This document shows, in pieces, positions 1,248-23,088 of a DNA stretch of 23,088 nt (within the stretch, counting starts at the first letter, position 1; every line of letters starts with the position of its first letter). The translations under genes were made by a program, and so were the position numbers. A model generated the notes under the pieces. That model was not told the origin of the DNA. It did not search any database and was given only the letters and a program-made list of their open reading frames with translations. This DNA is from a virus (taxonomy: Duplodnaviria; Heunggongvirae; Uroviricota; Caudoviricetes), in the IMG/VR virus record IMGVR_UViG_2563366797_000001; one strand, written 5' to 3'.

Positions 1248-1771
1248 CGGTCAATGGGGCCATCGACTGGCTTAACCGCGCTTCTTATTTTTTCACCCTT
1301 GATCCATCGCCAGACAATATGCGGCGCGTTGGTCGTGGCCGCCGTCGCCGTGGTGTTTGTTATTGCATGGCACTACCCGATGTTAAAGAACGTGAAGTCA
1401 GAGATGGCGTTCTGTGCTTCCGTCGTGTGGCTGAGCGCGGCACGGAGCCAAAAAATACGAATTCTCCCGAGTGGTGGGCGTGGCGCTGGTCCGCACATTT
1501 CGGCCTTTGCGAAGATGAGAATGAAATTGCCAGCGGCAATAGTGCATATGGTGCTCTGAACCTGGCTTTCCATATCGGATTCAAACATGTCGCCCTGGTG
1601 GGCGTTGACGCTACACAAGAACCACGCGTTCACTCCGGCGGCACGCCAAAAAATCTAAGTCACCTGCCTTTGTTATTCCAGTCTGCGCGTGAACAGATTG
1701 ACGTTGTTTCATGCGGGAAAATGGGAGGTATTCCGCAGATGACTCTTAAAGAATGGCTGAAGAATACATGA
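1145..1771 (+). CDS. Sialyltransferase/Maf-like (GT42/DUF115-like) putative glycosyltransferase, paralog 2
   Basis: [13 protein letters not shown]...IIAVNGA...[28 protein letters not shown]...VHSGGTPKN; same motif order as paralog 1. AGGAG lies upstream of the ATG; overlaps the paralog 1 tail by about 100 nt. Confidence 0.5.
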
Positions 1772-2445
1772 TGGCACCCACAATTTATCACCGTATCGAC
1801 GGTACCAAATACAGGAATGTCTGGGTTGTTGGTGATCTGCATGGTTGCTACACCAGACTGATGTCCGAACTCCATCGTGTGGATTTTGACCCGGCGCAGG
1901 ATTTACTGATATCGGTCGGCGACCTTATCGATCGCGGTACTGAAAATGTCGAATGTCTGGAACTATTGCAGATGCCCTGGTTCAGGGCAGTGATGGGGAA
2001 CCATGAGCGGCTGATGATTGATGCGTTAAGTCCAGATGGCAACGTGAATAACTGGCTAATGAATGGCGGTCAATGGTTCTTCATGCTGGACGCTGATCAG
2101 GAAATATTAGCCAGGGCGCTGGTGGAGTTGGTAAGACGACTGCCCTATATCATTGAGTTGAACACCGGGCAAGAAACTATCGTTATAGCCCATGCCGACT
2201 ATCCGGATAATGAATATCAATTCGGTAAGGAGGTGCCGCTTTTCAACGTTGTCTGGGCGCGCGAGCGTATCAGTGATTCGATGGATGATATTGGTGGCGA
2301 AATTTCTGGCGCAGATCGTTTTATCTTTGGTCACACTCCGGTGAAAAGCCCGAAGACATTCTGGAATCAGCATTATATCGACACAGGTGCCGTATTTTGC
2401 GGAAACCTGACATTGATGAAAGTGAAAGGTGATGGTGCAGCATGA
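1768..2445 (+). CDS. Ser/Thr protein phosphatase, lambda PPase / PrpA-PrpB family (metallophosphoesterase)
   Basis: Near full-length match to recalled lambda phosphatase: [44 protein letters not shown] at 1768 overlaps the upstream stop (ATGA); 1753 is an alternative start. Confidence 0.85.
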
Positions 2446-3143
2446 AGATTGCTTTAGTTCTTCGCTCTGGTGGTGACTATAACGCTTCCGATGTGCAGTG
2501 GCTGGTTAATCAACTGCCAAAAGGCTATGAAATTATTTGCCTGACAGACCTGAAGCGTTTACATGTACCTGGCGTCAAAGTTGTCCCATTGATCAACCAG
2601 TGGCAAAAGTGCCGTGGCTGGTGGGCGAAAATCGAGTTGTTCCGACCGGATATAACCGATGATCTGTTCTATCTGGATTTGGACACGGTTATTGCCGGTG
2701 ATATACGCCCAATCCTAGAGAATCCACCAACCAGCTTCACCATGCTTAGGGATTTTTACCATCCACAATATCGTGGCAGCGGTGCCCTGTGGATACCAAA
2801 TAGTGTAAAAGCGCATATCTGGAGTGCATTCTGGCAAGATCCGGAAGGTTGGATTGCTCGTTGTGTTACTACTGAATGCTGGGGTGAGCAGGGGTTTTTG
2901 CGGAAGGTTATGGGTGATGATACACCAGCATTTCAGGATCTGTATCCGGGATGGTTTGTAAGTTACAAGGCCGATGTTGTGGAACCTGGTTCGAAATATG
3001 CGAGCGCGCGTTACTCCAGGGGGAATGGGGCATTACCAAAAGACTGCCGAATAATCTTTTTCCACGGCAAACCGCGACCTCGCGAAGTGTCAGAGGATTG
3101 GCTTCCCCTTATCAGCTCATTTTTTGAGCGAGAATCAGAATAA
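2442..3143 (+). CDS. GT-A fold (GT8-like) nucleotide-sugar glycosyltransferase
   Basis: N-terminal strand [12 protein letters not shown], DxD-type motif [14 protein letters not shown]-terminal FFHGKPRP resembling the GT8 H.G..KPW motif. ATGA start-stop overlap with the phosphatase gene. Confidence 0.5.
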
Positions 3144-3144
3144 T

Positions 3145-3161
3145 ATTGCTCTAATAATTCC
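3145..3161 (+). promoter_or_regulatory. C1 operator-like site
   Basis: ATTGCTCTAATAATTCC, two bases after the glycosyltransferase stop codon. Confidence 0.55.
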
Positions 3162-3169
3162 ATATTTTT

Positions 3170-3199
3170 AAAACGTGATGTACACTCATCACGTTTTTT
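3170..3199 (+). terminator. Intrinsic terminator hairpin (bidirectional-looking) between two inverted operator sites
   Basis: AAAACGTGATG-TACACT-CATCACGTTTT followed by T-run; preceded by T/A run on the other side. Confidence 0.55.
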
Positions 3200-3210
3200 A
3201 TTAGAGCAAT
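3194..3210 (-). promoter_or_regulatory. C1 operator-like site (inverted relative to 3145-3161)
   Basis: Minus-strand reading ATTGCTCTAATAAAAAA. Confidence 0.55.
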
Positions 3211-3224
3211 CTATAAGGTGCACT

Positions 3225-3443
3225 ATGTGGCCATTCCGACGGAAATATCACTACTGGCTGATCGCCTTTGTTACGCCGACCGGCGGTATCAGGCATGTCA
3301 TCACCAGGTATCGCAACAAGAGACTCACCTTAGCCAGAATTTTACAGGCTGCCATAGGTGAGGGACTGGATACAAATTGCGTAGTCCTTCCACCTTCATA
3401 CTTAGGAAAAATGACCGAAGCACAAGCTAATACGGAACTTTGA
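3225..3443 (+). CDS. Hypothetical protein (72 aa)
   Basis: ATG with AAGGTG about 7 nt upstream, directly after the operator site. No recognisable motif. Confidence 0.3.
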   Translation: MWPFRRKYHYWLIAFVTPTGGIRHVITRYRNKRLTLARILQAAIGEGLDTNCVVLPPSYLGKMTEAQANTEL

Positions 3444-3602
3444 AATGAGCACTTCAGCACAAAACCAATCAATCGAAAATGTATCTAGAGGAAACTGCGG
3501 CAAGAAGACTTCTCGATGTTTGCTATGCACGTAGCGATGCATGGGAAAAAGAGAACGGCGGCACTATTTACGTTCGCTGATAGTTACAGTGTCACTTTTA
3601 AT

Positions 3603-3633
3603 GCTGGTGGAGTGCTCCCACCAGCATTTTTTT
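3603..3633 (+). terminator. Rho-independent terminator
   Basis: GCTGGTGG-AGTGCTC-CCACCAGC followed by ATTTTTTT. Confidence 0.55.
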
Positions 3634-3652
3634 CGTCCAATGAGGAGGGCAT

Positions 3653-4159
3653 TTGAGTATTTTCAATAAACACGCACACCAGGAACGTCCGTACATCGTC
3701 ATAGTAGATATTGATGGGACGATATCAGAGGCAACGGAAGACAGGCTGCATTTACTTCCACCACCTGGCAAAGGTGCATTAACAGAGCACTGGAACGAGT
3801 TTAACCTTGCCTGTGACACTGATGCTCCCATCACTCCAGTTATTGATATGGTGCGCCAGTTGTCCGGCATTTACACCCTCTGGTTTGTAACCGGGCGCTG
3901 TGAGATAGCCAGGGATAAAACACGAGCCTGGTTGCGTAAGCACGTAACAAATGGGGCTGAGCCTTTGCTATCTATGCGTCCTGCCACCGATGACAGAAAT
4001 GACGGTCCAGCAAAGATTGATCTCCTGAAGAAAATTGGTCTAAGTAAAATTGCGTTCGCGCTGGAAGATAAGATTGAAGTGGCGCGTGTTTTCAGGAGTC
4101 ACGGCGTACTTACGTTAATGGTCAGGGAGTATGAAAACGCGCTTCTCCATCAACAATAA
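3653..4159 (+). CDS. HAD-superfamily phosphatase-like protein
   Basis: TTG start with strong GAGGAGGG Shine-Dalgarno. HAD motif I VIVDIDGTI (DxDGT), motif II LWFVTGR, acidic motif FALEDK. Confidence 0.5.
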   Translation: MSIFNKHAHQERPYIVIVDIDGTISEATEDRLHLLPPPGKGALTEHWNEFNLACDTDAPITPVIDMVRQLSGIYTLWFVTGRCEIARDKTRAWLRKHVTNGAEPLLSMRPATDDRNDGPAKIDLLKKIGLSKIAFALEDKIEVARVFRSHGVLTLMVREYENALLHQQ

Positions 4160-4175
4160 TTGCTCTAATAAATCT
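4159..4175 (+). promoter_or_regulatory. C1 operator site with promoter-like TTGATT immediately downstream
   Basis: ATTGCTCTAATAAATCT followed by CTTGATTTTT; the same operator-TTGATTTTT arrangement recurs at 18642. Confidence 0.6.
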
Positions 4176-4257
4176 TGATTTTTAAAACAGAGAAAGTGAA
4201 AATAAAAACATGCCGCAAGGCGCGGCATGTATCCAATCAATCACAGGAGCTGAAAAT

Positions 4258-4344
4258 ATGAACACGGCATTCAAAATCATTATGGCCGCGATCTATTTCT
4301 GGCTGTTCTCTATCACTTTTGGCAGCATTGTCGCGCATGGGTAA
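4258..4344 (+). CDS. Small hydrophobic peptide (28 aa), possible membrane peptide or toxin-like
   Basis: MNTAFKIIMAAIYFWLFSITFGSIVAHG; AGGAG 8 nt upstream; downstream of the 4159 operator and a hairpin (4210-4231). Too short for the ORF track. Confidence 0.3.
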   Translation: MNTAFKIIMAAIYFWLFSITFGSIVAHG

Positions 4345-4423
4345 GGGGAGTATATTAGCCATTTGGAACCCCACGGTCTCTTGCGGGTTTAATTAAGAAC
4401 CCGCAAGAAAAATACGAATTGGG

Positions 4424-7400
4424 CTATATTTTTCCGCCTACGCCTTTAAACTTCTCAATAAACGAGACGATTTTCTGGAAAACTGCCTGTTTTTTCGTTT
4501 TATATTGCGGATTCAACGGACTAAGTTTTGGTAATGTTTCGTTTAATTCTGTGCCATTTTCGGTGGCGTATTCGCGTTTTAAAGACGTGCGAATATAGCG
4601 TTTTGCTGCATCTTCATTGAGATTTTCTTCTTTTATCAATGCTTCTGCTTCACGTTGCTGTTCGCGTTGAGCAAACGTAAAGAATGCCTCAATGATACTG
4701 GCTTTGTCTGGTAAATCATCCAGGTTCGTTTGCTGAATAAAATCGACCACCAGGCCCTCTTTCGCCCGGTTCCCCAGGCTTGAACGAATTAAGCGTTTGA
4801 CCTCTTCGATCATTTCGCCCTTGCCTTTATTTTGTCTATTGTGTTCGAAAATCAGTCCAAGGATATAATCCAGGTTTATTTCCTGAGACTTCAGCAAATC
4901 GACCTCAAAAACTACGTCATCCCAGTCAGTGGTTGATTTCTCTTTTTTCTCAGCTTCTTTCTCACGGCGCTGCCAGTCGCGAATATCGTTATAGGCAGAA
5001 CGATAATCCTGAATCTTGCGATCAGCAGGGAGACGAATTGTTTGCAATTCAGCGAACTTTTCATTATCCACATAATGTTCTGCTTTGAATTTTTCTACCG
5101 CAACAGGATCGCTAAGATCGATTTGTTGCAGGGCTTTTAGCGTGGCAAATTCATCATAGTTTTGCAGGATGTTCTCGGCACGCAGGTATTCGCCAAACAG
5201 TTTAACGAAGTCTTTCTTCTCTTTTTCACTTTCAATACTGGTAGGGTCAGGGAACCGTTGTTCCAGTTCTGAAACTACTGTCATGAAGCCGCGTTTAGCT
5301 TCACCAGTGGCAGCATCAGTAAAGCCTTCCATATACTCTGCATAACTCTTTTCTAAAACCACATTTTTGGTATTTTTGTCACCAAACAGCGTTATGGCAT
5401 CAATGGTTGAGCGTTCCAGATCCCGGAACGTGACAATATTACCGAAGGTTTTAGTCGCGTCATAAATGCGGTTGGTGCGGGAGAATGCCTGCATCAGGCC
5501 GTGAAAACGCAAGTTTTTATCGACGAATAGCGTGTTTAATGTTGGAGCATCGAAGCCGGTTAAAAACATCCCCACGACAATTAGCAGATCGATATCCTGA
5601 TTTTTAACCCGCTGGGCTAAATCACGATAGTAGTTCTGAAAACCGTTACTGTCGGTGCTAAAGTTAGTTTTAAAATGGCTGTTATATTCACGAATTGCAG
5701 CGTCCAGAAACTCTTTAGCACTGCTGTCCATTGCGCTGGTATCAAAAGTTTCATCGGAAATTTCACCAATGGCATTTTGTTCTTCATTGGCGGCAAAGGA
5801 GAAGATTGTCGCAATACGCAGCGGTTTATAGGTAGCCGATTTATTAGCGGCTTCTTCTTGTAACCGTTTAAACGTCGCATAATAGGCTTTCGCGGCATCC
5901 ACGCTGCTCACTGCCAACATAGCATTAAAACCTTTTGAGCCAGGGAAGGTACGGTGGGTTTTCTGGCGGAAATTATTCAGAATATATTGCGTGATTTCCT
6001 GAATACGCATGGGATGAAGAAACGCCTGCTGATTTTCAGCCGCACTCAGTTTTTTCTCGTCAGTTTCTGTCTCTAAAGACTTAAACTGTGGCCGCACATC
6101 GTTGTAGTCCACCTTGAATTTGAGCACTTTTTCGTCACGAATCGCATCGGTAATTACATACGAATGCAATTCACGACCAAATACGCTGGCGGTTGTTTCT
6201 GAGCCTAAGGCGTTTTCCGGGAAAATAGGGGTGCCGGTAAAACCAAACTGATAATAGCGTTTGAATTTCTTCTTCAGGTTTTTCTGCGCTTCTCCAAACT
6301 GGCTGCGGTGGCATTCATCAAATATAAACACCACTTGCTGATTATATACAGGCAGATCGCTTTCTGCTTTCATCAGGTTATTGAGTTTCTGAATAGTAGT
6401 GACGATAATTTTGTTATCGTCCTTATCCAGATTTCGTTTAAGACCTGCGGTATTTTCCGAGCCGTTGACGCTGTCTGGCGAAAAACGCTGATATTCCTTC
6501 ATGGTCTGGTAATCGAGGTCTTTCCTGTCGACCACAAAGAAGACTTTATCAATAAAGTCCAGCTCTGTTGCCAGACGCGCGGCTTTAAAGCTGGTGAGGG
6601 TTTTACCAGAACCGGTAGTGTGCCAGATATACCCACCGCTTTCCGGTTTTGACCAGTTCTTCGCTGTAAAGGAACTCTTAATTTTCCACAGAATGCGCTC
6701 GGTGGCGGCAATCTGGTACGGTCGCATTACCAGTAGTGTCTGACTGCTGTCAAAAACGCTGTAGTTCACCAGAACATTAAGCAGAGTATGTTTCTGGAAA
6801 AAGGTAGCGGTAAAGTCTTTGAGGTCTTTAATCAGTGTATTGTCTGATTTAGCCCAGTTCATGGTGAAGTCAAAACTGTTTTTATCGCGCTTTGTGGTGT
6901 TGGCAAAATAACGGGTATCAGTGCCGTTGGAAATGACGAACAGCTGCAGATACTTAAACAGGGAATTTTCGCTGTTAAAACTCTCTTTACTGTAACGATG
7001 TATCTGGTTGAAAGCCTCACGAATCGCCACCCCGCGTTTTTTTAGTTCGATTTGCACCAGCGGTAAACCATTAACCAGGATCGTGACGTCATAACGGTTA
7101 GCATGAGAACCCGTCTGTTCAAACTGCTGGATAATCTGCACCTTATTGCGCATGAGATTCTTTTTATCTATCAAATAGATGTTCTCAAGACGCTCGTCAT
7201 CAAAAATAAAGTCGCAAATATAGTCGATATGGATTTTACGGGTCTTATCCAGAATGCCATCGCTCGGGTTATCCAGATACTGCTCCGTGAAACGCCGCCA
7301 CTCGCTGTCATTAAACACCACACCATTGAGGTTCTGAAGCTGTTCCCGAACATTGGCTAGCATCGCCGACTGTGATTTTACGGATATAAATTCATAGCCC

Positions 7401-7540
7401 TGATTCCGCAGGTCCTGAATCAGTTCACGTTCCAGGTCCGATTCGCTCTGGTAGCTGTCGCCTGTTTGCTCAGCTTTGATGTACTTATCAAGGACGATAA
7501 AGTTATTGGATTCAGCAATGGTGTGTGTTTGATGAGTCAT
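4424..7540 (-). CDS. hsdR: Type I restriction enzyme R subunit (HsdR)
   Basis: 1038 aa; Walker [18 protein letters not shown]-box-like [11 protein letters not shown], helicase motifs; last gene of the M-S-R operon. Confidence 0.95.
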
Positions 7541-7661
7541 AGCGCATCCTTTGTGCCGTCTGGCAAGGGCCGGAAGGGAGTTAAGGGCGACTTCCGGCGT
7601 GTAGAAAATAGTCTATATACTGACCGGATGTTAAGGTGGTCCGGTCTGTAAAAATGCTCAA

Positions 7662-8288
7662 TTAATTACTGGCTGTTTCAGGTTTTGGGAAACTGAACAG
7701 TAAATCACGATAGTACTCGTATTGTTTCTGGCGCAACTCGATTTCACGCGGGAGACCTTCGGTGATGGAGTTGGTCAGTGTGTCGAATTTGTCCAGAATT
7801 CGCACGATTTCAGACTGGATGGCAAGGGATTTTTCCGGATTATCCGGGCAGGGGATTGGGATTTTTTTTTGAGAATAATTACTAATCCATTGGCGTTTAT
7901 GGTCTCCCTCTGCGAATTCACTTGGTAATGTATTGAGCCAATAGTAAACATATTTCAGTAAGGTTTTATTATCATCACATGATGTAACCATTTTCATGGC
8001 CGATGATTTTGCCTTAAAGTCAAAATCCACCCATTTATTAGCGGTGGTGAAATCATCAAAAATTATTACAGGTGCCTTTGATGCCTGATAAATACCATGA
8101 GTCTCATTTGTGTATCCAAGAATAAATGTTTTTCCGGCAGTAAGAACCGGTATGGTATATGTGTCGTGATAATCTTTTGCTTTTACCAAATACTTTGTTG
8201 GCTGTTCATATTTGGTTATTTCCCCCAATGGCAACCACTCAACTTCAACCCCATCCAGCAATTTTTCCAGATAACTCATCTCGCTCAT
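7662..8288 (-). CDS. hsdS: Type I specificity subunit (HsdS), short single-TRD form
   Basis: 208 aa; start overlaps the hsdM stop by 4 nt (coupling); position between hsdM and hsdR; length is consistent with one target-recognition domain plus a conserved region. Confidence 0.8.
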
Positions 8289-9847
8289 TTCTGCACCTCG
8301 CAGCCTTCAATTTCAGCCACAATCGCATCAATATCTTTGCGCAACTGGTCGATTTTGCTGACCGTGGTTTTCAGCTCAGCATTCAGCTCACCGATATCGA
8401 TAATTTCGCGAGTATCTTTCGCTTCAACATAACTGCTCACCGACAGGTTATAGTCATTCGCGACAACAGTCTCAAACGCAACAGATTTCGCCAGATGGGC
8501 AACATCTTCCTTGCCGGCAAATACCTGCATAATCTGTTCGATATGGGCATCGGTCAGGATATTGTTGTTAGTCTCTTTTTTGAACAATTCGCTGGCATCA
8601 ATAAACTGAACTTTGGTATCCGTTTTATGTTTAGACAGCACCAGAATATTGACGGCAATGGTGGTGCCAAAGAACAGGTTCGGTGCCAGTGAAATCACGG
8701 TTTCGACATAGTTATTGTCGACCAGATATTGACGGATTTTCTGCTCTGCGCCGCCACGGTAAAAAATACCCGGGAAGCAGACAATCGCAGCACGACCTTT
8801 GGCCGAAAGATAGTTCAGCGCATGTAGTACAAACGCAAAGTCAGCTTTGGATTTGGGGGCCAGGACGCCAGCCGGGGCAAAACGTTCATCGTTAATCAGC
8901 GTCGGGTCATCGCTGCCAATCCATTTCACCGAATACGGCGGGTTAGAAACGATGGCATCAAACGGTTTTTCATCTCTGAAGTGTGGCTCAGTCAGTGTAT
9001 TACCCAGCTTGATATCAAACTTGTCGTAGTTGATGTTGTGCAAAAACATGTTCATACGTGCCAGGTTATAGGTTGTATGGTTGATTTCCTGACCAAAAAA
9101 GCCTTCTTCGATGATATGGTTATCAAACTGCTTTTTAGCCTGCAACAACAGTGAGCCGGAACCCGCTGCCGGGTCGTAGATTTTGTTAACGTTGGTCTGC
9201 CCGTGCATAGCCAGTTGTGCAATCAGCTTGGAGACGTGCTGCGGTGTAAAGAACTCACCGCCTGACTTACCGGCATTTGCCGCATAGTTAGAAATCAGGA
9301 ACTCATAGGCATCACCGAACAGGTCAATCTGATGTTCGTTGAAGTCACCAAGTTTTAACCCTTCAACCCCTTTCAGAACCGCAGCCAGGCGGGCATTTTT
9401 ATCTTTAACGGTGTTACCCAGGCGGTTACTGGTGGTATCGAAATCAGCAAACAAACCTTTGATGTCTGCTTCTGAAGGGTAGCCGTAAGCAGAACTTTCG
9501 ATAGCAACGAAGATGCTGTTTAAATCTGCGTTCAGTCTGTCATTGGTATTTGCTTTCGCAGCTACGTTGCAGAAAAGCTGACTTGGGTAGATGAAGTAGC
9601 CTTTGGTTTTGATGGCATCGTCTTTAATGTCATCAGTAATTACGCTGTCATCCAGTTTCGCATAACAGATGCTGTCATCACCGGCTTCAATATAGCTGGA
9701 AAAATTTTCGCTGATAAAACGGTAGAAAAGCGCGCCCAGAACGTATTGCTTAAAATCCCATCCATCGACCGAACCTCTGACATCGTTAGCAATTTGCCAG
9801 ATTTGACGATGAAGCTCTGCACGTTGTTGAATACTTGTCATTTTCAT
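8285..9847 (-). CDS. hsdM: Type I N6-adenine DNA methyltransferase (HsdM)
   Basis: 520 aa; NPPY motif ([11 protein letters not shown]), AdoMet-binding region ([10 protein letters not shown]), typical HsdM N-terminus. Confidence 0.95.
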
Positions 9848-9986
9848 CCACTTATTTCAGGCTTATGTAATTGGCGGTGATTCTACAGCAACTTGGATGC
9901 TTTAGCAGTTCGGACATTAGGCTACGAATGACCTGCCTAGAGGTTTGTTAAGCCGCAAAGTGCTGGTGCTTTATGTCTGTGAAGTT

Positions 9987-10017
9987 TATAATTGTGTACA
10001 CATAACGAGTACACGAG
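9987..10017 (+). promoter_or_regulatory. phd-doc promoter/operator region
   Basis: TATAAT at 9987-9992 followed by perfect palindrome TGTGTACACA (9993-10002) and GAGTACACGAG directly upstream of the phd ATG. Confidence 0.55.
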
Positions 10018-10023
10018 GTATTT

Positions 10024-10245
10024 ATGCAATCCATTAACTTCCGTACCGCGCGGGGCAACCTTTCTGAAGTGCTCAACAATGTTGAGGCCGGGGAAGAGGT
10101 TGAAATCACCCGCAGAGGCCGTGAGCCAGCAGTAATTGTCAGCAAGGCTACTTTTGAAGCCTACAAAAAAGCGGCGCTGGATGCTGAATTTGCATCCCTG
10201 TTTGACACCCTGGACTCCACCAACAAGGAACTGGTTAACCGATAA
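10024..10245 (+). CDS. phd: Phd antitoxin
   Basis: 73 aa, [39 protein letters not shown]..., matches recalled P1 Phd; stop overlaps the doc start. Confidence 0.95.
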
Positions 10246-10625
10246 TGAGGCATATATCACCGGAAGAACTTATTGCGCTTCATGATGCGAATATAAACCG
10301 CTACGGCGGCCTGCCGGGAATGTCTGATCCGGGTAGGGCAGAGGCCATTATCGGGAGAGTTCAGGCCAGAGTTGCCTACGAAGAGATCACCGACCTTTTC
10401 GAAGTCTCCGCCACCTACCTGGTGGCTACGGCGAGAGGGCATATATTCAATGATGCCAATAAGCGTACCGCGCTAAACAGTGCGCTGCTATTTCTACGCC
10501 GTAACGGGGTGCAGGTATTTGATTCACCTGAACTGGCAGACCTTACTGTAGGCGCTGCGACTGGCGAGATATCTGTATCTTCTGTCGCCGACACGTTACG
10601 TAGATTGTATGGTTCTGCGGAGTAG
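10245..10625 (+). CDS. doc: Doc toxin (Fic-fold kinase)
   Basis: 126 aa, [17 protein letters not shown]...[23 protein letters not shown], matches recalled P1 Doc. Confidence 0.95.
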
Positions 10626-10629
10626 ATTA

Positions 10630-10809
10630 ATGGCACGTAAATACAACAAATTGTCCCGTGAAGCGTTAAAGATGCTTCTTGATGGCGTGAGTCGCCGCGA
10701 GGTAAAGCAATACCTGGCTGGTAAGCAAATTGGTGCCAGGACCGCTATTGCTGTGTTATGCCGTCAGGAAATGGTTGTGCTTAAACAGAGAATGCCGGGC
10801 AGCATATAA
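10630..10809 (+). CDS. Small post-doc protein (PdcA-position), hypothetical
   Basis: ATG 5 nt after the doc stop with GGAG upstream; 59 aa MARKYNKLSREALKMLLDGVSRREVKQYLAG. Confidence 0.4.
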   Translation: MARKYNKLSREALKMLLDGVSRREVKQYLAGKQIGARTAIAVLCRQEMVVLKQRMPGSI

Positions 10810-10836
10810 AGCCCAATCAGTGATTAAAGGTGTGAT

Positions 10837-11880
10837 GTGAAAGCCGTAATTACTCCCTTTGTACAGAAAGAACTTGGCCTCGCCACGTTCAAAGTGGATC
10901 AGGAGGTCAGAAAGCTGGTGGAGGCTGGCCGTAAATTTATTATGGAGCCGGTGCCGCGTGAGTTAATCGAGCACATGGACGACGGCCTCGTTGCTTCCGA
11001 GCAAACTATAGCAACAAATGAGGCGTTGCAGCCGTTTTTTAACAGCGATGAACTGTTTCGCCGTATTGGTGGAATTGACGCGCTGGTGGCGTGGTTGCGC
11101 AGGAAAGAGGGGCAATGCCAGGCCGCAGATCGTAGCTGGTGTGACAACCATATTGTCCACGCTGAACGAGACAATAGCGCGGTGTTGTTGTGCTGGCATC
11201 ACGATAACCATTACCGGATGCGTGGTTTTAATGAGCTGAAAGAAACGCTGCACAATAATCGCGTTAACTGGATACTGGATGTCGCCCGTCAGGAAATGGG
11301 CCTTTCAGATAGCCATGATTTAAGTATTCAGGAGCTGTGCTGGTGGGCTTTCATGCGTAACATGATGCACCTGATGCCGGAAGAAGTCTGCCGCATATCA
11401 ATAAATAAGATGAAGGCTGCTCCGCAGGATAGCGGACCTCTGAAAGAGGCGGATATTCGCCCGTATGACGATCGCGCTACAGCATATGTTCAGATGATGG
11501 AAGAACGCGCCGCGCCGATGCGTGCAAAAGTATGCCCTGTGGATGTTGACTCCGACCCAGGTATGGCGCATTTCAAAATACCAAAACTTCAATCGCTAAA
11601 ATTGCCCGAGTACATGGACTTTGTGGCTTCCCGTCCATGCTGTGGCTGTGGAGCTGCGGGAGCTGGCGCTCACATTACGCCTTATATCGTTCGTCATAGT
11701 CGATTATGCGCGCATGACATTTACGCAATTCCTCTGTGCCAGTCATGCCAGCGTGATATTGAGCGTGACCGCGATAATTGGGAGAAGACGCACGGTAGGC
11801 TGGCGATGCATCAACGATTGTTCTTTGATTACGCGCTTGGAGTCGGCGCTATCACAAGTTACTCGTCGAGCGTTAGATAA
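10837..11880 (+). CDS. Hypothetical Cys-rich protein (PdcB-position)
   Basis: 347 aa, GTG start with AAGGTG upstream; C-terminal cysteine cluster (CCGCGAAG...CAHD...CQSCQRD) suggests metal binding. Family not recognised. Confidence 0.5.
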
Positions 11881-11881
11881 A

Positions 11882-11898
11882 ATTGCTCTAATGTATTG
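11882..11898 (+). promoter_or_regulatory. C1 operator site upstream of the lpa-position gene
   Basis: ATTGCTCTAATGTATTG, directly after the stop of the preceding gene. Confidence 0.6.
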
Positions 11899-11968
11899 CT
11901 ATTTCTTTAATCGATGGTATTATATTCCACGTTGATTAGTTGACATGGGCTAATCAGTAGGTGACAGG

Positions 11969-12283
11969 ATGTTACTTAACTGGCAGGGACGCCACTTCAT
12001 GGAAATAAATCACTCACGAATAACATCGTACGAGATTGCGAATTACATGATCCGCACTAAATCTCTTCTATCAGCGAAAGAACTCGCAGCAATTCTTGAA
12101 AAGGAATACCCGCATCTGGATGTCGATAAGCGCGATGTTTATCTGCGCTTAAAAGCTATCGCTGTGTCTAAGTATTCGTCTGTTTTGATTGATGACAGTA
12201 CGAACGAAAGCGTGAAAATAACTGGTCAGTGCTGGAAGCAGCTGAATTCATCGAGGCGCATGGCGGGAAAGTGCCGCCCCTGA
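11969..12283 (+). CDS. Possible late-promoter-activator (Lpa-position) protein
   Basis: 104-aa ORF downstream of a C1 operator; assignment by position only. Confidence 0.3.
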
Positions 12284-12600
12284 TGCTGGAGCAAATCAAA
12301 GCCGATCTGCGTGCTCCTAAGACCAATACCGATGATGAGGAAAGGCAAACAGCCGTCGGTGGCCCTTCTCTTGAAGATCTGGACAAAGTTGCGCGAGAAC
12401 GGGCCGCCAACCGCCGCGCCGATGCCGCATTGTGGATTGAGCAGCGTAGGGAAGAAATCGCCGATATCGTTGATACAGGCGGTTATGGAGATGTTGATAC
12501 TGAAGGTGTATCAAACGACCCATGGCTGGAACAAGACCTGGACGAAGACGAGGAGGAAGACGAAGAAGTTACCCGCAAGCTATACGGGGATGATGATTAA
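12229..12600 (+). CDS. pacA: PacA-like terminase small-subunit C-terminal remnant
   Basis: 123 aa from GTG, acidic C-terminus ([11 protein letters not shown]); stop overlaps the pacB ATG (TAATG). Frame closed upstream at 12193. Far shorter than the recalled ~45-kDa P1 PacA. Confidence 0.4.
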
Positions 12601-12989
12601 TGGCCAGAAGTTGCGTAACGGATCCACGTTGGCGCGAGCTGGTGGCGCTATATCGTTATGACTGGATTGCGGCCGCTGATGTTTTGTTCGGCAAAACACC
12701 TACCTGGCAGCAGGATCTGATTATTGAGTCTGTGCAGGAACAGGGTAGCAAGACATCTGTTTCGTCTGGTCACGGTACCGGGAAATCAGACATGACTTCT
12801 ATCATGATCATGTTGTTCATAATCATGTATCCCGGTGCCCGCGCCATTATCGTTGCGAACAAAATTCAGCAGGTAATGACCGGTATATTCAAGTACATCA
12901 AGATAAACTGGGCTACTGCCACCAGCCGTTTTCCATGGCTTGCTGATTATTTTGTTCTGACAGAAACCGCTTTCTATGAGGTTACTGGT
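12600..12989 (+). pseudogene. pacB: pacB (terminase large subunit), N-terminal part, interrupted by IS2
   Basis: Walker [10 protein letters not shown]; reading frame runs into the IS2 end at 12990 and resumes in frame at 14326. Confidence 0.8.
12985..12989. repeat. IS2 target-site duplication, left copy (CTGGT)
   Basis: CTGGT immediately outside the IS2 terminus; identical copy at 14321-14325. Confidence 0.85.
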
Positions 12990-13000
12990 TGGATTTGCCC

Positions 13001-13906
13001 CTATATTTCCAGACACCTGTTATCACTTAACCCATTACTGGCTTGCTGCCGTAGATATTCCCGTGGCGAGCGATAACCCAGTGCACTATGCGGATGCCAT
13101 TCGTTATAATGCTCGAACGCCTCTGCAAGGTTCTTTGCTGCCGTTAACCCGTCTGGTTTGGGCATGACACTGATGTAGTCACGCTTTATCGTTTTCACGA
13201 AGCTCTCTGCTATGCCGTTACTCTCCGGACTCCGCACCGCCGTGCTCTTCGGTTCAAGCCCCAACATCCGGGCAAACTGCCGTGTTTCATTAGCCCGGTA
13301 GCATGAACCATTATCCGTCAGCCACTCTACTGGAGACGCCGGAAGCTCGTTGCCGAAGCGGCGTTCCACCGCTCCCAGCATGACGTCCTGTACTGTTTCA
13401 CTGTTGAAGCCGCCCGTAGTGACCGCCCAGTGCAGTGCCTCACGGTCACAGCAGTCCAGCGCGAACGTGACTCGCAGTTTTTCTCCGTTATCACAGCGGA
13501 ACTCGAACCCGTCAGAGCACCATCGCTGATTACTTTCTTTCACAGCCACTCTGCCTGTATGTGCCCGTTTCGATGGCGGTACAGCAGGTTTTCGCTCAAG
13601 CAACAGCGCATTCTGGCGCATGATCCGGTAAACACGTTTGGCATTGATCGCAGGCATACCATCAAGTTCTGCCTGTCTGCGAAGCAGCGCCCATACCCGA
13701 CGATAACCATACGTGGGCAGCTCTCCGATAACATGGTGTATACGGAGAAGCACATCCGTATCATCAGTGTGACGACTGCGGCGGCCATCCATCCAGTCAT
13801 CGGTTCGTCTGAGAATGACGTGCAACTGCGCACGCGACACCCGGAGACAACGGCTGACTAAGCTTACTCCCCATCCCCGGGCAATAAGGGCGCGTGCGCT
13901 ATCCAC
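13001..13906 (-). CDS. insD: IS2 transposase OrfB (InsD)
   Basis: 301 aa, DDE integrase-type sequence (...WCSDGFEF...LTDNGSCY...). Confidence 0.9.
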
Positions 13907-14229
13907 TTTTTTGCCCGTCCATATTCAACGGCTTCTTTGAGGAGTTCATTTTCCATCGTTTTCTTGCCGAGCAGGCGCTGGAGTTCTTTAATCTGCTTCA
14001 TGGCGGCAGCAAGTTCAGAGGCAGGAACAACCTGTTCTCCGGCGGCGACAGCAGTAAGACTTCCTTCCTGGTATTGCTTACGCCAGAGAAATAACTGGCT
14101 GGCTGCTACACCATGTTGCCGGGCAACGAGGGAGACCGTCATCCCCGGTTCAAAACTCTGCTGAACAATTGCGATCTTTTCCTGTGTGGTACGCCGTCTG
14201 CGTTTCTCCGGTCCTAAGACATCAATCAT
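13864..14229 (-). CDS. insC: IS2 OrfA (InsC)
   Basis: [41 protein letters not shown]...; helix-turn-helix N-terminus; start taken at MIDVL (121 aa). Confidence 0.9.
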
Positions 14230-14320
14230 CTGCTCTCCAATGACTAGTCTAAAAACTAGTATTAAGACTATCACTTAAATAAGTGATACTGGTTGTCTGG
14301 AGATTCAGGGGGCCAGTCTA

Positions 14321-14325
14321 CTGGT
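14321..14325. repeat. IS2 target-site duplication, right copy (CTGGT)
   Basis: Identical to 12985-12989. Confidence 0.85.
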
Positions 14326-15420
14326 AAAGGTGTATGGACTGTAGTACCGAAGGGCTTTCGTCTGGGAAGTGAAGAAGTTCTCGCCGGTGAACACGCAGAT
14401 CATCTTCTGTATATTATCGATGAAGCCTCCGGTGTCAGTGATAGAGCTTTCGGTATCATCACCGGTGCTCTTACCGGACAGGATAACCGCATCTTATTAC
14501 TGTCACAGCCTACACGCCCAAGCGGCTATTTCTACGATACTCACCATAAACTGGCCAAGCGTCCTGGTAACCCAGATGGCGTTTATACGGCGATCACGCT
14601 TAACAGTGAGGAATCACCGCTGGTAACGTCAGAATTTATCAAAATGAAGCTGGCGGAGTACGGCGGGCGTGATAACCCTATGTACATGATTAAGGTACGC
14701 GGCCTATTCCCTAAATTACAGGACGGCTTCCTTCTTGGACGTGATGAGGTTGAACGTGCGACGCGGCGGAAAGTCAAGATTGCCAAAGGATGGGGCTGGC
14801 TTGCATGTGTGGACGTTGCTGGTGGTACAGGACGGGATAAGTCCTTTATCAATATCATGATGGTGTCCGGCCAGCGAAATAAACGCCGTGTAATCAACTA
14901 TCGAATGCTGGAATACACAGACGTTACAGAAACGCAGCTTGCCGCCAAAATTTTCGCAGAATGTAATCCTGAGCGATTCCCCAATATCACCATAGCGATA
15001 GACGGCGATGGCCTGGGTAAAGCAACGGCGGATCTGATGTACGAGTATTATGGTATTACCGTACAGCGTATACGCTGGGGTAAAAAGATGCATAGCCGTG
15101 AAGATAAGAGCCTGTACTTTGATAAACGTGCTTATGCCAACGTTCAAGCCGCAGAGGCCGTAAAATCTGGTCGTATGAGACTGGATAAGGGTAATGAAAC
15201 TATTGAGGAAGCGTCGAAAATCCCTGTAGGGATTAACTCCGCAGGTCAATGGAAGGTGATGAGTAAGGAGGATATGAAGAAAAAACTCAACCTGCACTCA
15301 CCAGACCATTGGGATACATATTGTTTCGCTATGCTGGCGGATTATGTTCCCCAGGACGAAGTGCTTAGCGTCGAAGACGAAGCGCAGGTTGATGAAGCTC
15401 TGGCATGGCTTAATGAATAA
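14326..15420 (+). pseudogene. pacB: pacB (terminase large subunit), C-terminal part
   Basis: 365 codons in frame with the N-terminal fragment once IS2 and one duplication copy are removed; reconstructed length about 495 aa. Confidence 0.8.
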
Positions 15421-15423
15421 ACA

Positions 15424-15440
15424 CTTGCTCTAATAAATTG
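15424..15440 (+). promoter_or_regulatory. C1 operator-like site heading the antirepressor module
   Basis: CTTGCTCTAATAAATTG, followed by TTGACT and a possible -10. Confidence 0.55.
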
Positions 15441-15572
15441 TGTTTTTTGACTGCCGATGTTACATTGAACCTGACCTCTTGCGCCTTGAGGCATTTTCGG
15501 TTTATGCTTATCAGGCACCTCATTAAAACGGGTGCCGGGATTGAGACCCCGGATAATGTCAAAGGCGACACA

Positions 15573-15594
15573 GACGCCGAAAGCGTCTTTTTTT
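15573..15594 (+). terminator. Intrinsic terminator-like hairpin inside the antirepressor leader
   Basis: GACGC-CGAAA-GCGTC followed by T7; flanked by complementary GACACA/TGTGTC. Confidence 0.5.
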
Positions 15595-15779
15595 GTGTCA
15601 TGCCATCGCACAGCCATACGTAGCGTTTAGCTCCGAAATCAATGGTAGTGCTGGCTGGGCTGCCGAAAGGCAGGCCGGTTCCCTTTGACGCCGGTAGTCT
15701 CAACCCAGTCAGTGCTACCGCCATTGAGATTGAGACCTCACGCGGTAGCTCCTTAACTTAGTCAAAGGAGGCTGCCATT

Positions 15780-16001
15780 ATGGCTACTGTCCCTACCCCA
15801 ATTCATCCTGAATTTATCTGGCGCTTTTACTCCTGCCAAAAACGTCACTATCACTTCGTTATTGCACCGACAGAAGATGAGGCCCATTCTCAGCTTCCTG
15901 ACGCCCCATGTATTTTCTCTGCCCGTTTTTCCACTGATTCACGCAATTCTCTCAGTTACTGGTGCCTCCCTGTTAACGCTTCTGCTCAGGAGGGACTATG
16001 A
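15780..16001 (+). CDS. Small protein translationally coupled to the antirepressor gene (Icd-like position)
   Basis: 73 aa; strong AAGGAGG Shine-Dalgarno; stop overlaps the downstream ATG (ATGA). Confidence 0.4.
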   Translation: MATVPTPIHPEFIWRFYSCQKRHYHFVIAPTEDEAHSQLPDAPCIFSARFSTDSRNSLSYWCLPVNASAQEGL

Positions 16002-17116
16002 GAACGTCATTAGTTACCCGTGAAGAGATGATCGAGGCAATTGAACAGCACACTGCCTGTATCAGTACTAGGGATATACCGGGCGTTATTGCCAACTACT
16101 TCATGATCACCAAACAACTTTACCGGAGAAAGGACAAGAACGCAGTTCACCGCATCCTGCTGTCTGATATCCGCGAATACCTGCTCGAACAGGGGCATCT
16201 GAATTACGCAACCGCCGCAGCCGAATCACGCAAGGAGGCACACAGAATGAAAGCAACTAACGTTAAATCAGAAAAAATTCATGCACCTTCAGTTCAGGAA
16301 TCGGAGCTGGTGGTTGTTCAGAATCAGTCTGATGAAATTCCCGTTCTGGAATGGCAGGGAGTGCGTGTAGTGACAACCGAGACTCTTGCTAGAGGGTATG
16401 GGACAGAAACAATCCGTATTCGCCAAAATCATCATGAGAACAAAGTACGCTTTGTTGAAGGGAAGCACTTTTTCAAAGTTGAAGGAGAATCATTGCGCGA
16501 GTTGAAGCACAGAGTAGCTTTAAACTACTCTGTAAAAATTGCTCGCAATGTTCGCTCACTCACCCTCTGGACAGAACGCGGCGCAGCCCGCCACGCTAAA
16601 ATGCTCGAAACCGATCAGGCATGGGCATTCTTTGAAAAACTGGAAGACAGCTACTTCCGACAAAAAGAACAGCAACCGATCGCAATCCCCCAGACGCTTC
16701 CTGAAGCCCTACGCCTGGCTGCCGAACTGGCTGAACAAAAGCAACTTCTGGAACAGAAAGCCCACCAGCTAAATCAGCAGCTGGTGGCCGCCGCTCCTAA
16801 AGTCGATTTTGCCGACCGGGTATCAGTAGCTAAAGGGATCCTGATTGGGAATTTTGCAAAGGTTGTTGGACTTAAGCAAAACGCGCTGTTTGTCTGGTTA
16901 CGGGAGAACGGCATCCTGATAGCGTCCGGTGGACGTAAAAATGTGCCGTTCCAGCAGTACATCAACGCGGGGTATTTCACGGTGAAAGAAGTGGTGCTGG
17001 ATGATGAAGATGGCTACCAGATACGGTTGACGCCTCAATTAACGGGTAAAGGCCAGCAGTGGTTGACGCGTAAACTGCTCGATGCTGGCTTGTTAAAACC
17101 GGTGGCGGCTGAATAA
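15998..17116 (+). CDS. Antirepressor-like protein (N-terminal ORF6N domain, C-terminal KilAC/Ant domain)
   Basis: 372 aa; N-terminal ...WQGVRVVTTETLARGYGTETIRIRQNHHENKVRFVEGKHFF... (ORF6N pattern), C-terminal ...FVWLRENGILI...YINAGYF... (Ant C-terminal pattern); convergent with c1. Confidence 0.7.
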   Translation: MRTSLVTREEMIEAIEQHTACISTRDIPGVIANYFMITKQLYRRKDKNAVHRILLSDIREYLLEQGHLNYATAAAESRKEAHRMKATNVKSEKIHAPSVQESELVVVQNQSDEIPVLEWQGVRVVTTETLARGYGTETIRIRQNHHENKVRFVEGKHFFKVEGESLRELKHRVALNYSVKIARNVRSLTLWTERGAARHAKMLETDQAWAFFEKLEDSYFRQKEQQPIAIPQTLPEALRLAAELAEQKQLLEQKAHQLNQQLVAAAPKVDFADRVSVAKGILIGNFAKVVGLKQNALFVWLRENGILIASGGRKNVPFQQYINAGYFTVKEVVLDDEDGYQIRLTPQLTGKGQQWLTRKLLDAGLLKPVAAE

Positions 17117-17123
17117 TGGAAGA

Positions 17124-17145
17124 ATGCCCGGTTGATGCCGGGCAT
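17124..17145. terminator. Hairpin between the convergent antirepressor and c1 genes
   Basis: ATGCCCGG-TTGATG-CCGGGCAT; no strong T-tract on either side. Confidence 0.35.
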
Positions 17146-17148
17146 AAT

Positions 17149-18000
17149 TTATTGCGCGCTTTCGGGGTTGTCGTTTACTGGCTGCCCCTTCTTGGTTTTA
17201 CGGCTGCGCGTAACTGATGCGGCTGACTTAACCTTTTTCTCTTCGCGAGTGATGGCAATTTGTTTTTTTACATTTTCAATATCTGCCAGGCGATATATTT
17301 TTGCTTGCGGCCAGCGGTCGCAGATGATCGGTTCTATGGAGTCATAAAGGCTAAATTTTGCTTTTTCGAATTCACCGTTGATGATAATTCCATCACGGAG
17401 AGTTTCATCGCAGATAAACACGCCACACAGTGGCACATGGTAACTAACTGATTTACCATCATTGTAGTTAGGGCTACTGGAAATGTAGTGGACGCGCAGC
17501 ATTGTTTCGCTAAAGCCGTGTACGCGCATACGGAATTTTTCATCCTCCGGGTACTGCTTCATTAGCTCTTTTGTTGCTTCCAGGTTCTCTATGTATTTCG
17601 CACTGTGCTCATTGATCCCCGCGCTTTTTTGGATGCGAATGTCCTTATCAATCAGATGAATAATGCGGCCAGCGGTCATGTTGACGCTGTTCACAGCTTC
17701 TGTCTGATAAGTTGTAACCTTACGCACACCGCGAAGGATGTTAGGCACTGGATATAAAATAGTCTTTGGGATATTGAGGTCTGGGTACTGTTCCAGTTCC
17801 CGCGCCATTAAAGTCCATTTATCAATTTCAGCCTGAATGCTGTCAGTTTCTTTGAACGGTAGAACGACAACCGGGCGTACAGGACGACCGTCGCTGGCTG
17901 TATCAACGTGTTGGGCGCGTGCAACAGCTTTTTTTAGAAAGAGATCCCTGAAGCTGACGAACTCCTGGTACAGTTGTTCGCCGTAGACATAATTTATCAT
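17149..18000 (-). CDS. c1: C1 repressor of lysis (primary immunity repressor)
   Basis: 283 aa, MINYVYGEQLYQEFVSFRDLFLKKAVARAQHV..., matches recalled P1 C1; GGAGGAGG Shine-Dalgarno. Confidence 0.95.
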   Translation of the reverse strand: MINYVYGEQLYQEFVSFRDLFLKKAVARAQHVDTASDGRPVRPVVVLPFKETDSIQAEIDKWTLMARELEQYPDLNIPKTILYPVPNILRGVRKVTTYQTEAVNSVNMTAGRIIHLIDKDIRIQKSAGINEHSAKYIENLEATKELMKQYPEDEKFRMRVHGFSETMLRVHYISSSPNYNDGKSVSYHVPLCGVFICDETLRDGIIINGEFEKAKFSLYDSIEPIICDRWPQAKIYRLADIENVKKQIAITREEKKVKSAASVTRSRKTKKGQPVNDNPESAQ

Positions 18001-18320: not shown

Positions 18321-18558
18321 AATTATGTCTCACTGTATTGACAACACAGAGCCTGAAGCTCTGACCTACTGTTTCACCCATGATCCATGCTGGGGTAATC
18401 TAACAACATTGCGCTGTGTGTAAGATGAGCAATGCATAGCTGTAATGCCGTTGTATAAGGTTTCCCTGTTTGCTCATTTCCTTCTGAGCCGCTCTACAAC
18501 GCTGAAGACACATTAAATAGTGAATCCAAAGTCGTATTACGAAACGGCGGCAAAACTA

Positions 18559-18701: not shown

Positions 18702-18735
18702 ATAACTTCGTATAGCATACATTATACGAAGTTAT
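18702..18735. other. loxP: loxP site-specific recombination site
   Basis: Exact ATAACTTCGTATA-GCATACAT-TATACGAAGTTAT (13-bp inverted repeats around an 8-bp spacer). Confidence 0.98.
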
Positions 18736-18754
18736 CTTAAGGGTTATTGAACAT

Positions 18755-18827
18755 GATCAATTCACCTGTAAATCCATACAGTTCAATACCTTATCAGGTC
18801 AAATAGTGATCACTTGATCATTTGATC
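18755..18827. promoter_or_regulatory. Cluster of four GATC (Dam) sites upstream of cre
   Basis: GATC at 18755, 18808, 18816 and 18824, three of them as TGATCA-type repeats within 20 bp. Confidence 0.55.
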
Positions 18828-19153: not shown

Positions 19154-20185
19154 ATGTCCAATTTACTGACCGTACACCAAAATTTGCCTGCATTACCGGT
19201 CGATGCAACGAGTGATGAGGTTCGCAAGAACCTGATGGACATGTTCAGGGATCGCCAGGCGTTTTCTGAGCATACCTGGAAAATGCTTCTGTCCGTTTGC
19301 CGGTCGTGGGCGGCATGGTGCAAGTTGAATAACCGGAAATGGTTTCCCGCAGAACCTGAAGATGTTCGCGATTATCTTCTATATCTTCAGGCGCGCGGTC
19401 TGGCAGTAAAAACTATCCAGCAACATTTGGGCCAGCTAAACATGCTTCATCGTCGGTCCGGGCTGCCGCGACCAAGTGATAGCAATGCTGTTTCACTGGT
19501 TATGCGGCGGATCCGAAAAGAAAACGTTGATGCCGGTGAACGTGCAAAACAGGCACTAGCGTTCGAACGCACTGATTTCGACCAGGTTCGTTCACTCATG
19601 GAAAATAGCGATCGCTGCCAGGATATACGTAATCTGGCATTTCTGGGGATTGCTTATAACACCCTGTTACGTATAGCCGAAATTGCCAGGATCAGGGTTA
19701 AAGATATCTCACGTACTGACGGTGGGAGAATGTTAATCCATATTGGCAGAACGAAAACGCTGGTTAGCACCGCAGGTGTAGAGAAGGCACTTAGCCTGGG
19801 GGTAACTAAACTGGTCGAGCGATGGATTTCTGTCTCTGGTGTGGCTGATGATCCGAATAACTACCTGTTTTGCCGGGTCAGAAAAAATGGTGTTGCCTCG
19901 CCATCACCCACCAGCCAGCTATCAACTCGCGCCCTAGAAGGGATTTTTGAAGCAACTCACCGATTGATTTACGGGGCTAAGGATGACTCTGGACAGAGGT
20001 ACCTGGCCTGGTCTGGACACAGTGCCCGTGTCGGAGCCGCGCGAGATATGGCCCGTGCCGGAGTTTCAATACCGGAGATCATGCAAGCTGGTGGCTGGAC
20101 CAACGTAAATATTGTCATGAACTATATCCGTAACCTGGATAGTGAAACAGGGGCAATGGTGCGCCTGCTGGAAGATGGCAATTAG
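19154..20185 (+). CDS. cre: Cre tyrosine recombinase
   Basis: 343 aa, MSNLLTVHQNLPALPVDATSDEVRKNLMDMFRDRQAFSEHTWKMLLSVCRSW..., matches recalled P1 Cre; sits about 420 bp from loxP. Confidence 0.97.
   Translation: MSNLLTVHQNLPALPVDATSDEVRKNLMDMFRDRQAFSEHTWKMLLSVCRSWAAWCKLNNRKWFPAEPEDVRDYLLYLQARGLAVKTIQQHLGQLNMLHRRSGLPRPSDSNAVSLVMRRIRKENVDAGERAKQALAFERTDFDQVRSLMENSDRCQDIRNLAFLGIAYNTLLRIAEIARIRVKDISRTDGGRMLIHIGRTKTLVSTAGVEKALSLGVTKLVERWISVSGVADDPNNYLFCRVRKNGVASPSPTSQLSTRALEGIFEATHRLIYGAKDDSGQRYLAWSGHSARVGAARDMARAGVSIPEIMQAGGWTNVNIVMNYIRNLDSETGAMVRLLEDGN

Positions 20186-22046: not shown

Positions 22047-23088
<1,042 letters not shown>

Follow-up and report, generated by a model that had tools for sequence, protein, structure and literature searches.

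Why does the DNA upstream of pacB in this phage-derived sequence hold only a short PacA-like reading frame, and why does it lack a P1-type pac site? An earlier note, made from the letters alone, had offered two answers for positions 10837-12600 of the window (the whole stretch of DNA analysed, 23,088 nt): either a deletion had removed pac and the 5' part of pacA, or this lineage uses a different small-terminase architecture. We approached the locus by alignment with P1 and its relatives; the P1 feature positions given below are those of the GenBank annotation of P1, carried onto the window via the collinear alignment.

The ORF listing and megablast identified the window as a segment of a P1-type plasmid prophage, with a nucleotide identity of 98-98.5% to SJ46 and RCS47 and of 93% to P1 and P7. 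Its genes run in the order hsdRSM, phd, doc, pdcA, pdcB, a 5' piece of lpa, a 3' piece of pacA, pacB interrupted by IS2, ant, c1, coi, loxP and cre. The Punavirus backbone is recognisable from the synteny of phd-doc-pdcA-pdcB-lpa-pacA-pacB and, further on, of c1-coi-loxP-cre, from the high nucleotide identity and from an exact match to loxP (18702-18735); judged by its sequence, the source element is a Punavirus, namely an RCS47/SJ46-like plasmid prophage. The hsdR gene, a short hsdS and hsdM lie upstream of phd on the minus strand, phd occupies 10024-10245 and doc 10245-10625, ash/icd/ant are located between pacB and c1 (17149-18000), coi lies between c1 and loxP, and cre is found at 19154-20185. 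The pdcB gene (10837-11880, plus strand) is intact: a full-length ORF encoding a DUF968/HNH-like protein of 347 aa (Pfam DUF968, E=5e-50), collinear with P1 pdcB (P1 locus 2738-3781). The earlier note had treated the whole of 10837-12600 as a rearranged packaging region; this description fits the remainder of the interval and not its first 1,044 bases (10837-11880), which are pdcB and lie outside the packaging module.

A 1,100-bp deletion between lpa and pacA

Alignment of window 10600-12989 with P1 and RCS47 gave two collinear blocks with a 1,100-bp gap between them. When the window was compared by BLAST with each of these two loci, window 10600-12201 matched reference locus 2501-4102 and window 12199-12989 matched locus 5200-5990; exactly 1,100 bp present in P1, RCS47 and SJ46 (reference locus 4103-5202) are missing from the window, and the flanks of the gap are 97-99.6% identical to RCS47. 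The same picture was obtained with the 16 phage records covering the whole query, in which the 2,390 bases of window 10600-12989 corresponded to about 3,490 bases and always aligned in two pieces. The two BLAST blocks overlap by 3 bp at 12199-12201, and base-by-base reading found TAC at both reference breakpoints. These results show one deletion event of 1,100 bp, with a TAC at either end, that left codon 78 of lpa fused out of frame to codon 265 of pacA. From the 3-bp microhomology at the junction we infer an origin by illegitimate recombination, which may have taken the form of replication slippage or of microhomology-mediated end joining. The removal of pac and of the 5' part of pacA, which had been put forward as one of two readings, is seen directly in the alignment as 1,100 absent reference bases.

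The deleted interval carried the 3' half of lpa (codons 79-150), the Lpa-dependent late promoter LPpac, and the start of pacA with the codons for PacA residues 1-264, as well as the complete pac site, i.e. seven TGATCA/G hexamers, the IHF site and the cleavage sites, with an eighth hexamer just beyond. In the P1 annotation, LPpac (4354-4372) and the pacA start (4408) fall within 4354-4410, and the IHF site and four cleavage positions lie at 4663-4692, all inside the missing interval.

On the left of the junction, the C1 operator Olpa (11882-11898, plus strand) and the sigma-70 promoter Plpa (11896-11923, plus strand) are retained upstream of the lpa remnant and are nearly identical in sequence to P1 (positions transferred from the P1 annotation, where Olpa and Plpa together correspond to P1 locus 3783-3824). 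The late promoter-activating protein Lpa (gene 10) is the activator of all P1 late promoters. Only codons 1-78 of 150 are left here (11969-12201, plus strand), with 77/78 residues identical to P1/RCS47 Lpa. This remnant fits the Pfam family PF25716 (BPP1_LPA) at positions 1-64 of 131 only, short of a complete domain, covers positions 1-79 of 148 of the PHROG Lpa-like activator, and is called a pseudogene 'missing C-terminus' by PGAP in sister plasmids. Reading on across the junction, it forms a chimeric ORF of 104 aa (11969-12283, plus strand; ATG 11969, TGA 12281-12283) composed of Lpa 1-78 and 26 out-of-frame pacA codons, which has a PHROG of its own (phrog_26110, 'unknown function', 104 positions) and matches it end to end.

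On the right, the pacA 3' remnant (12202-12600, plus strand) comprises PacA residues 265-397 and the stop codon, with 133/133 residues identical to RCS47 PacA; the N-terminal region of the full-length protein (about 397 aa) is gone. As the earlier note had stated, the PacA-like frame is at most 134 codons long (open over 12196-12600 and ending in TAA 12598-12600; 133/134 residues equal RCS47 PacA 265-397), is closed upstream by a stop at 12193 (TGA 12193-12195), and does not share the reading frame of the 104-aa ORF before it, the phase of 12202 differing from that of 11969-12283. The picture given there of P1 PacA as a protein of roughly 45 kDa, with pac in the 5' part of its gene, likewise agrees with the P1 annotation, in which PacA has 397 aa and cleavage is placed at pacA nt 276-285. 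The promoter, RBS and native start of the remnant are all absent, and gene callers begin it either at ATG 12283 (105 aa) or at GTG 12229 (123 aa). Its homology to PacA is evident from a PHROG terminase match at positions 277-402 of 417 (E=5e-68), and the 105-aa version has a PHROG family as well (phrog_23417, 105 positions); in sister plasmids PGAP annotates the remnant as 'terminase; incomplete; missing N-terminus' and flags it as a pseudogene. Full-length PacA itself gives only sub-threshold HTH hits in Pfam (a weak HTH at residues 7-44), and statements on PacA domains are correspondingly weak. In a survey of 77 P1-like elements, pacA was among the genes that were always of P1 length (PMC9603915).

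Consistently with the reported lack of a pac hexamer cluster, 10837-12600 contains no TGATCA or TGATCG (the nearest is at 12805), and its six GATC sites are scattered. By our own arithmetic about 1.3 hexamers are expected by chance per 1.76 kb, and the zero count alone is not significant. It gains significance from the alignment, because the homologous P1/RCS47 stretch has eight hexamers within 182 bp (locus 4601, 4608, 4620 and 4635; 4731, 4743 and 4754; plus 4782), all in the deleted DNA. The published description of pac is of a 161-bp stretch within pacA that carries seven repeats of the Dam-site hexamer TGATCA/G, and synonymous destruction of seven hexamers led to lower P1 genome packaging (PMC10028697). 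An arrangement of this kind (about 161 bp, with four plus three hexamers flanking the IHF and cleavage sites) is missing here, the reference cluster at 4601-4782 having been wholly deleted with both its HEX4 and HEX3 sets.

A search for a pac-like hexamer cluster across the whole window found only the Dam cluster of the cre/loxP region, where the hexamer count reaches its maximum of 5 per 250 bp. This is the cluster that had already been pointed out as the only dense one: four TGATCA at 18754-18823, immediately to the right of loxP. They are the cre-regulatory Dam sites, of which P1 annotates three, at +37, +98 and +106 from the lox centre; the fourth was gained in the window by one base change. 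As a candidate for a relocated pac this cluster was rejected, being homologous to P1's own cre-regulatory Dam sites. No second copy of the deleted 1,100 bp was found in the complete sister plasmid NZ_CP061751.1 or in any fetched locus.

IS2 in pacB

The start of pacB overlaps the pacA stop, as in P1, and the gene is split after codon 130. Its 5' fragment (codons 1-130; 12600-12989, plus strand) is followed by an insertion of 1,331 bp on the minus strand (12990-14320), whose ends and target duplication were read directly. The insertion has imperfect terminal inverted repeats, orfA (13864-14274, minus strand) and orfB (13001-13906, minus strand) with a frameshift, and a 5-bp target duplication, CTGGT, at 12985-12989 and 14321-14325, which together identify it as IS2 of the IS3 family; PGAP names it 'IS3-like element IS2 family transposase'. 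Excision in silico of IS2 and one duplication copy joined the 5' part to the 3' fragment (codons 131-494 plus stop; 14326-15420, plus strand) and restored a 494-aa pacB ORF, in which 489/495 aligned positions, stop included, are identical to RCS47 PacB. In the window as it stands, the contiguous 494-aa frame is lost, and read-through from the pacB 5' fragment into IS2 yields an ORF of 158 aa (12600-13076, plus strand). A Pfam search assigned no family to PacB or to PacB fragments. These data show an IS2 insertion in pacB, separate from the 1,100-bp deletion.

The truncation of lpa, the loss of LPpac and the splitting of pacB by IS2 were all absent from the earlier account of this locus, whose deletion reading was incomplete rather than wrong.

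Distribution of the lesion and alternative explanations

A 121-bp junction probe was contiguous in only 2/610 matching PLSDB plasmids and in only 3/596 matching complete E. coli genomes. The carriers are H15 plasmid A (NZ_CP010179.1, host not recorded), NZ_CP061751.1 (O15:H12, sheep carcass, USA) and NZ_JBRAVH010000003.1 (human urine, New Zealand), and among the complete E. coli genomes the pacB/IS2 junction occurs in these same three only. The identical deletion junction, together with at least one IS2/pacB junction, was present in 10/10 further public contigs. One of these (L014) matches window 10000-17200 at 100% identity, two (L010 and L019) have suffered secondary deletions that span part of the pacA remnant and part of IS2, and in another (L013) the IS2 end contains a further IS. 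To order the two lesions, records bearing just one of them were sought among the complete E. coli genomes and the 10 extra contigs, and none was found.

At the protein level, the exact 104-aa chimeric protein was found on some 410 public contigs, Salmonella being represented among them, with only 18 variant sequences in its cluster, and its ORF in 796 blocks of the gene-position index; the 105-aa PacA remnant (ATG 12283) was found on 263 contigs and the 158-aa read-through from pacB into IS2 on 155. The intact lpa-pacA stretch is whole in 569/686 PLSDB plasmids matching the RCS47 sequence, relatives with 98-99.7% identical flanks keep the full pacA, and in E. marmotae NZ_CP099352.1 the flanks are 99.7% identical and the full 3,490 bp are present. 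The junction is a genuine lineage-specific lesion, and the lineage that carries it is widespread and still eroding.

Could the remnant nevertheless be a functional small terminase of about 105-134 aa, with a packaging site elsewhere in this lineage? In favour of this, the window has a terminase-like ORF of 105-123 aa whose translational juxtaposition to pacB is that seen in P1, and database entries name it 'terminase A protein' (the other deletion product is deposited as 'late promoter activating protein'). We give this possibility very little credence, and with it the different architecture allowed for in the earlier note has to be abandoned: the ORF reproduces precisely the C-terminal 133 residues of an ordinary 397-aa PacA, neither its native start nor its promoter has survived, PGAP flags it as a pseudogene, the downstream pacB is itself broken by IS2, the hexamer maximum of the window is the conserved cre-regulatory Dam cluster, and relatives with near-identical flanks carry the full gene, as do the 569 PLSDB plasmids mentioned above. 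That the gap is an assembly or sequencing artefact, e.g. a collapse between repeats, can practically be dismissed. Short-repeat-flanked deletions can arise in assemblies and nothing specific speaks for one here; the microhomology is just 3 bp, the identical junction recurs in three complete plasmids of the long-read era that differ in host and country, and in all ten of the further independent contigs, and the exact fusion protein is spread over 410 contigs.

Two further ideas concern the meaning of the deletion rather than its reality. Lpa(1-78) with its 26 extra residues, sitting behind the C1-controlled Plpa, might have been retained as a dominant-negative or decoy protein that prevents the element, or a superinfecting P1-like phage, from transcribing its late genes, thereby stabilising the plasmid and protecting the host. 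The near-identity of Olpa/Plpa to P1, the conservation of the first 78 lpa codons, the invariance of the 104-aa protein on the 410 contigs with its few variants, and the success of the lineage would all fit. We regard this as quite improbable, since invariance is what a recent clonal lineage would display without selection, expression and interaction are conjectural with clonal invariance as the only support, contigs L010 and L019 have lost adjacent DNA and reveal no pattern of preserving a unit, and loss of lpa function alone already accounts for stabilisation. It is doubtful, too, that the deletion is the scar of the element's own pacase, left when pac was cut in an abortive induction, both sides were resected by about 0.5 kb and the ends rejoined at TAC. 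This speculation has one basis, the geometry of a single event: the annotated cleavage sites at 4683-4692 lie near the middle of the missing interval (4103-5202), 580 bp of which is on their left and 510 bp on their right. Recurrent pac-centred deletions were sought in sampled PLSDB partial matches, a sparse sample, which had varied truncation endpoints inside lpa and no symmetric pattern. If such a route were true and general, pac-type phage-plasmids would own a built-in, self-inflicted conversion to pure plasmids.

Predicted loss of packaging and comparison with known systems

Very probably, then, the window derives from a P1-type plasmid prophage whose packaging module is dead, as a result of the 1,100-bp deletion and IS2, and which persists only as a plasmid. 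The late activator, both terminase genes and pac are all disrupted or absent, and the element is predicted from this to be incapable of lytic growth. By analogy with P1 genetics, the late promoters would not be activated without Lpa, and without PacA, PacB and pac there would be no pac cleavage, no packaging series and no headful packaging; the element would be expected to make neither virions nor transducing particles. With neither late transcription nor a packaging start, it would persist only as a plasmid, probably maintained by its replication and partition genes, phd-doc addiction and cre-lox and inherited vertically as an IncY-type plasmid, and conjugative mobilisation may also move it (H15 plasmid A is MOBH). 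Loss of lpa would remove the lethal late programme and plausibly favours carriage. In principle, Lpa and PacAB could be provided in trans by a helper phage in the same cell; since pac is missing in cis, this would allow only low-level generalized packaging. The remnants carry no accumulated secondary damage in the window, which suggests that the events are evolutionarily recent.

The wider decay of the replicon was judged from H15 plasmid A, whose sequence matches window 4400-15450 at 100% identity and which is typed as IncY, mobilizable and MOBH. The sister plasmids have frameshifts in ant and ref, an IS1 that splits mat, and ISKpn26 between coi and loxP. The remainder of NZ_CP061751.1 consists mostly of IS elements and cargo (tetrathionate reductase ttr, arsenic resistance ars, lactate utilisation) among P1 remnants, with RepB and ParAB retained. 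The sister plasmids thus combine P1 homologues and maintenance genes with a missing phage core, in the manner of the P1-derived defective plasmids of Pfeifer & Rocha 2024.

The value of these observations is mainly practical, as a lineage marker and an annotation caveat, and they open no new biological question. The deletion junction together with the pacB::IS2 junction marks a widespread, non-packaging P1-derived plasmid lineage of E. coli and occasionally Salmonella, and this marker could separate true from defective phage-plasmids in surveillance that scores P1-like elements as possible transducing carriers of resistance. Because the deletion products are named as genes in databases and have their own PHROGs (phrog_26110, phrog_23417), marker-gene screens such as pacA PCR or HMM matches could take such plasmids for intact phages.

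Compared with the lpa-pacA-pacB region of P1, P7, RCS47 and SJ46, the window has the same gene order, a nucleotide identity of 93-98.5% across doc-pdcA-pdcB-lpa and pacA-pacB, and surviving protein segments that are identical or nearly so. It differs in lacking the 1,100 bp that run from lpa codon 79 to PacA residue 264 and include LPpac and all of pac, and in having IS2 in pacB. The functions struck are the same as in engineered and classical P1 mutants of pac, pacA (gene 9) and gene 10 (lpa): gene 10 mutants, attributed to Lehnherr in 1991, reportedly lack late gene expression, and pacA/pacB mutants, attributed to Skorupski in 1992 and 1994 in work on PacA, PacB, IHF and HU, are said to fail at pac cleavage. 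Those mutations are laboratory alleles of otherwise intact phages, whereas here a natural compound lesion is found in an eroding plasmid. The insertion in pacB, with its 1,331 bp and 5-bp duplication, resembles other cases of IS2 insertional inactivation and has nothing unusual about it, and the secondary deletions that start at IS2 in contigs L010 and L019 resemble known IS-adjacent deletions.

At the level of the whole element, two carriers of the exact junction are listed among the P1-related plasmids of Pfeifer & Rocha 2024 (PMC10879196) with few or no head/packaging genes: Supplementary Dataset 7 of that study gives 30 conserved P1 genes and 0 head/packaging genes for NZ_CP010179, and 30 and 2 for NZ_CP061751, against 97 and 7 for P1 itself. 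The mobilizable type of H15 plasmid A fits the observation made there that such plasmids gain mobilisation functions. The dataset works at the level of gene repertoire; relative to it, the junction mapping, the shortened lpa and the position of IS2 described here add detail and no new category. The feature is a case of ordinary phage-plasmid decay, already catalogued at the element level and already flagged as pseudogenes by PGAP.

A second lesion in the packaging module and related observations

Beyond the coordinates considered in the earlier note, pacB is interrupted by a 1,331-bp copy of IS2 (window 12990-14320), which splits the gene after codon 130 and is flanked by a CTGGT target duplication (12985-12989 and 14321-14325). 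This insertion is a second, independent lesion of the packaging module, and it invariably co-occurs with the 1,100-bp deletion that affects lpa, pacA and pac. Two of the further public contigs carrying the same deletion junction have undergone an extra deletion: L010 (at ~6480) has lost the equivalent of window 12449-13693 and L019 (at ~6369) that of 12337-13689. The lost material comprises the remaining pacA remnant, the 5' fragment of pacB and the orfB side of IS2, consistent with IS2-adjacent deletion.

The two short frames at the junction were matched end to end by PHROG families annotated as 'unknown function', namely phrog_26110 for the 104-aa Lpa'-fusion (window 11969-12280) and phrog_23417 for the 105-aa PacA remnant (12283-12597). 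Pseudogene fragments appear to have been turned into database families.

Separately, we observed one junction carrier, L016 (GCA_000408025.1, KE136820.1), on a scaffold of 2.37 Mb; this placement could mean that the defective element has integrated into a chromosome, or it could be an artefact of scaffolding.

hsdS variation and neighbouring accessory genes

The window carries hsdS in a half-size form of 208 aa (7662-8288, minus strand). In the fetched loci of its sister plasmids (L004 and L005, locus positions 7414-8649), HsdS has 411 aa and is made of two halves that are 99% identical, with a 489-bp direct repeat. Because of this duplicated architecture, the 208-aa hsdS shared by the window and H15 plasmid A looks like the result of recombination between the repeats that removed 609 bp, one of the two target-recognition halves. 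Half-size HsdS proteins are known to function as dimers on symmetric targets. Among carriers of the identical deletion (L010-L019, genes at locus positions 1085-2320), hsdS encoded 411, 403, 400 or 208 aa, or was truncated by an IS. The type I restriction specificity subunit seems to be diversifying inside an otherwise clonal defective lineage.

Several accessory genes stand in a row to the left of hsdR (window 585-4159): one is sialyltransferase-like (585-1247), the next encodes a NinI-like Ser/Thr phosphatase (1753-2445), the third a glycosyltransferase (2442-3143), and the last is polynucleotide-kinase-like (3653-4159). An IS1 element match occupies positions 1-202.

Recombination, IS movement and Dam sites in the backbone

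The ant gene is an intact ORF of 372 aa in the window (15998-17116), and PGAP calls it frameshifted in two sister plasmids. Across 15450-17140, identity to the sister plasmids was only 94.8%, with 14 gap positions, and this segment is a recombination patch within a backbone otherwise 99-100% identical.

The right end of the window (22044-23088) holds ISKpn26, from position 22044 on. All three sister plasmids have a copy elsewhere, in the interval from coi to loxP, at a site equivalent to window 18435-18439; these differing locations therefore indicate that IS movement is still under way within the lineage.

Beside loxP, the cre regulatory region (window 18754-18823) contains four TGATCA Dam sites versus three in P1, the extra one having arisen through a single change from GTGACCA to GTGATCA.
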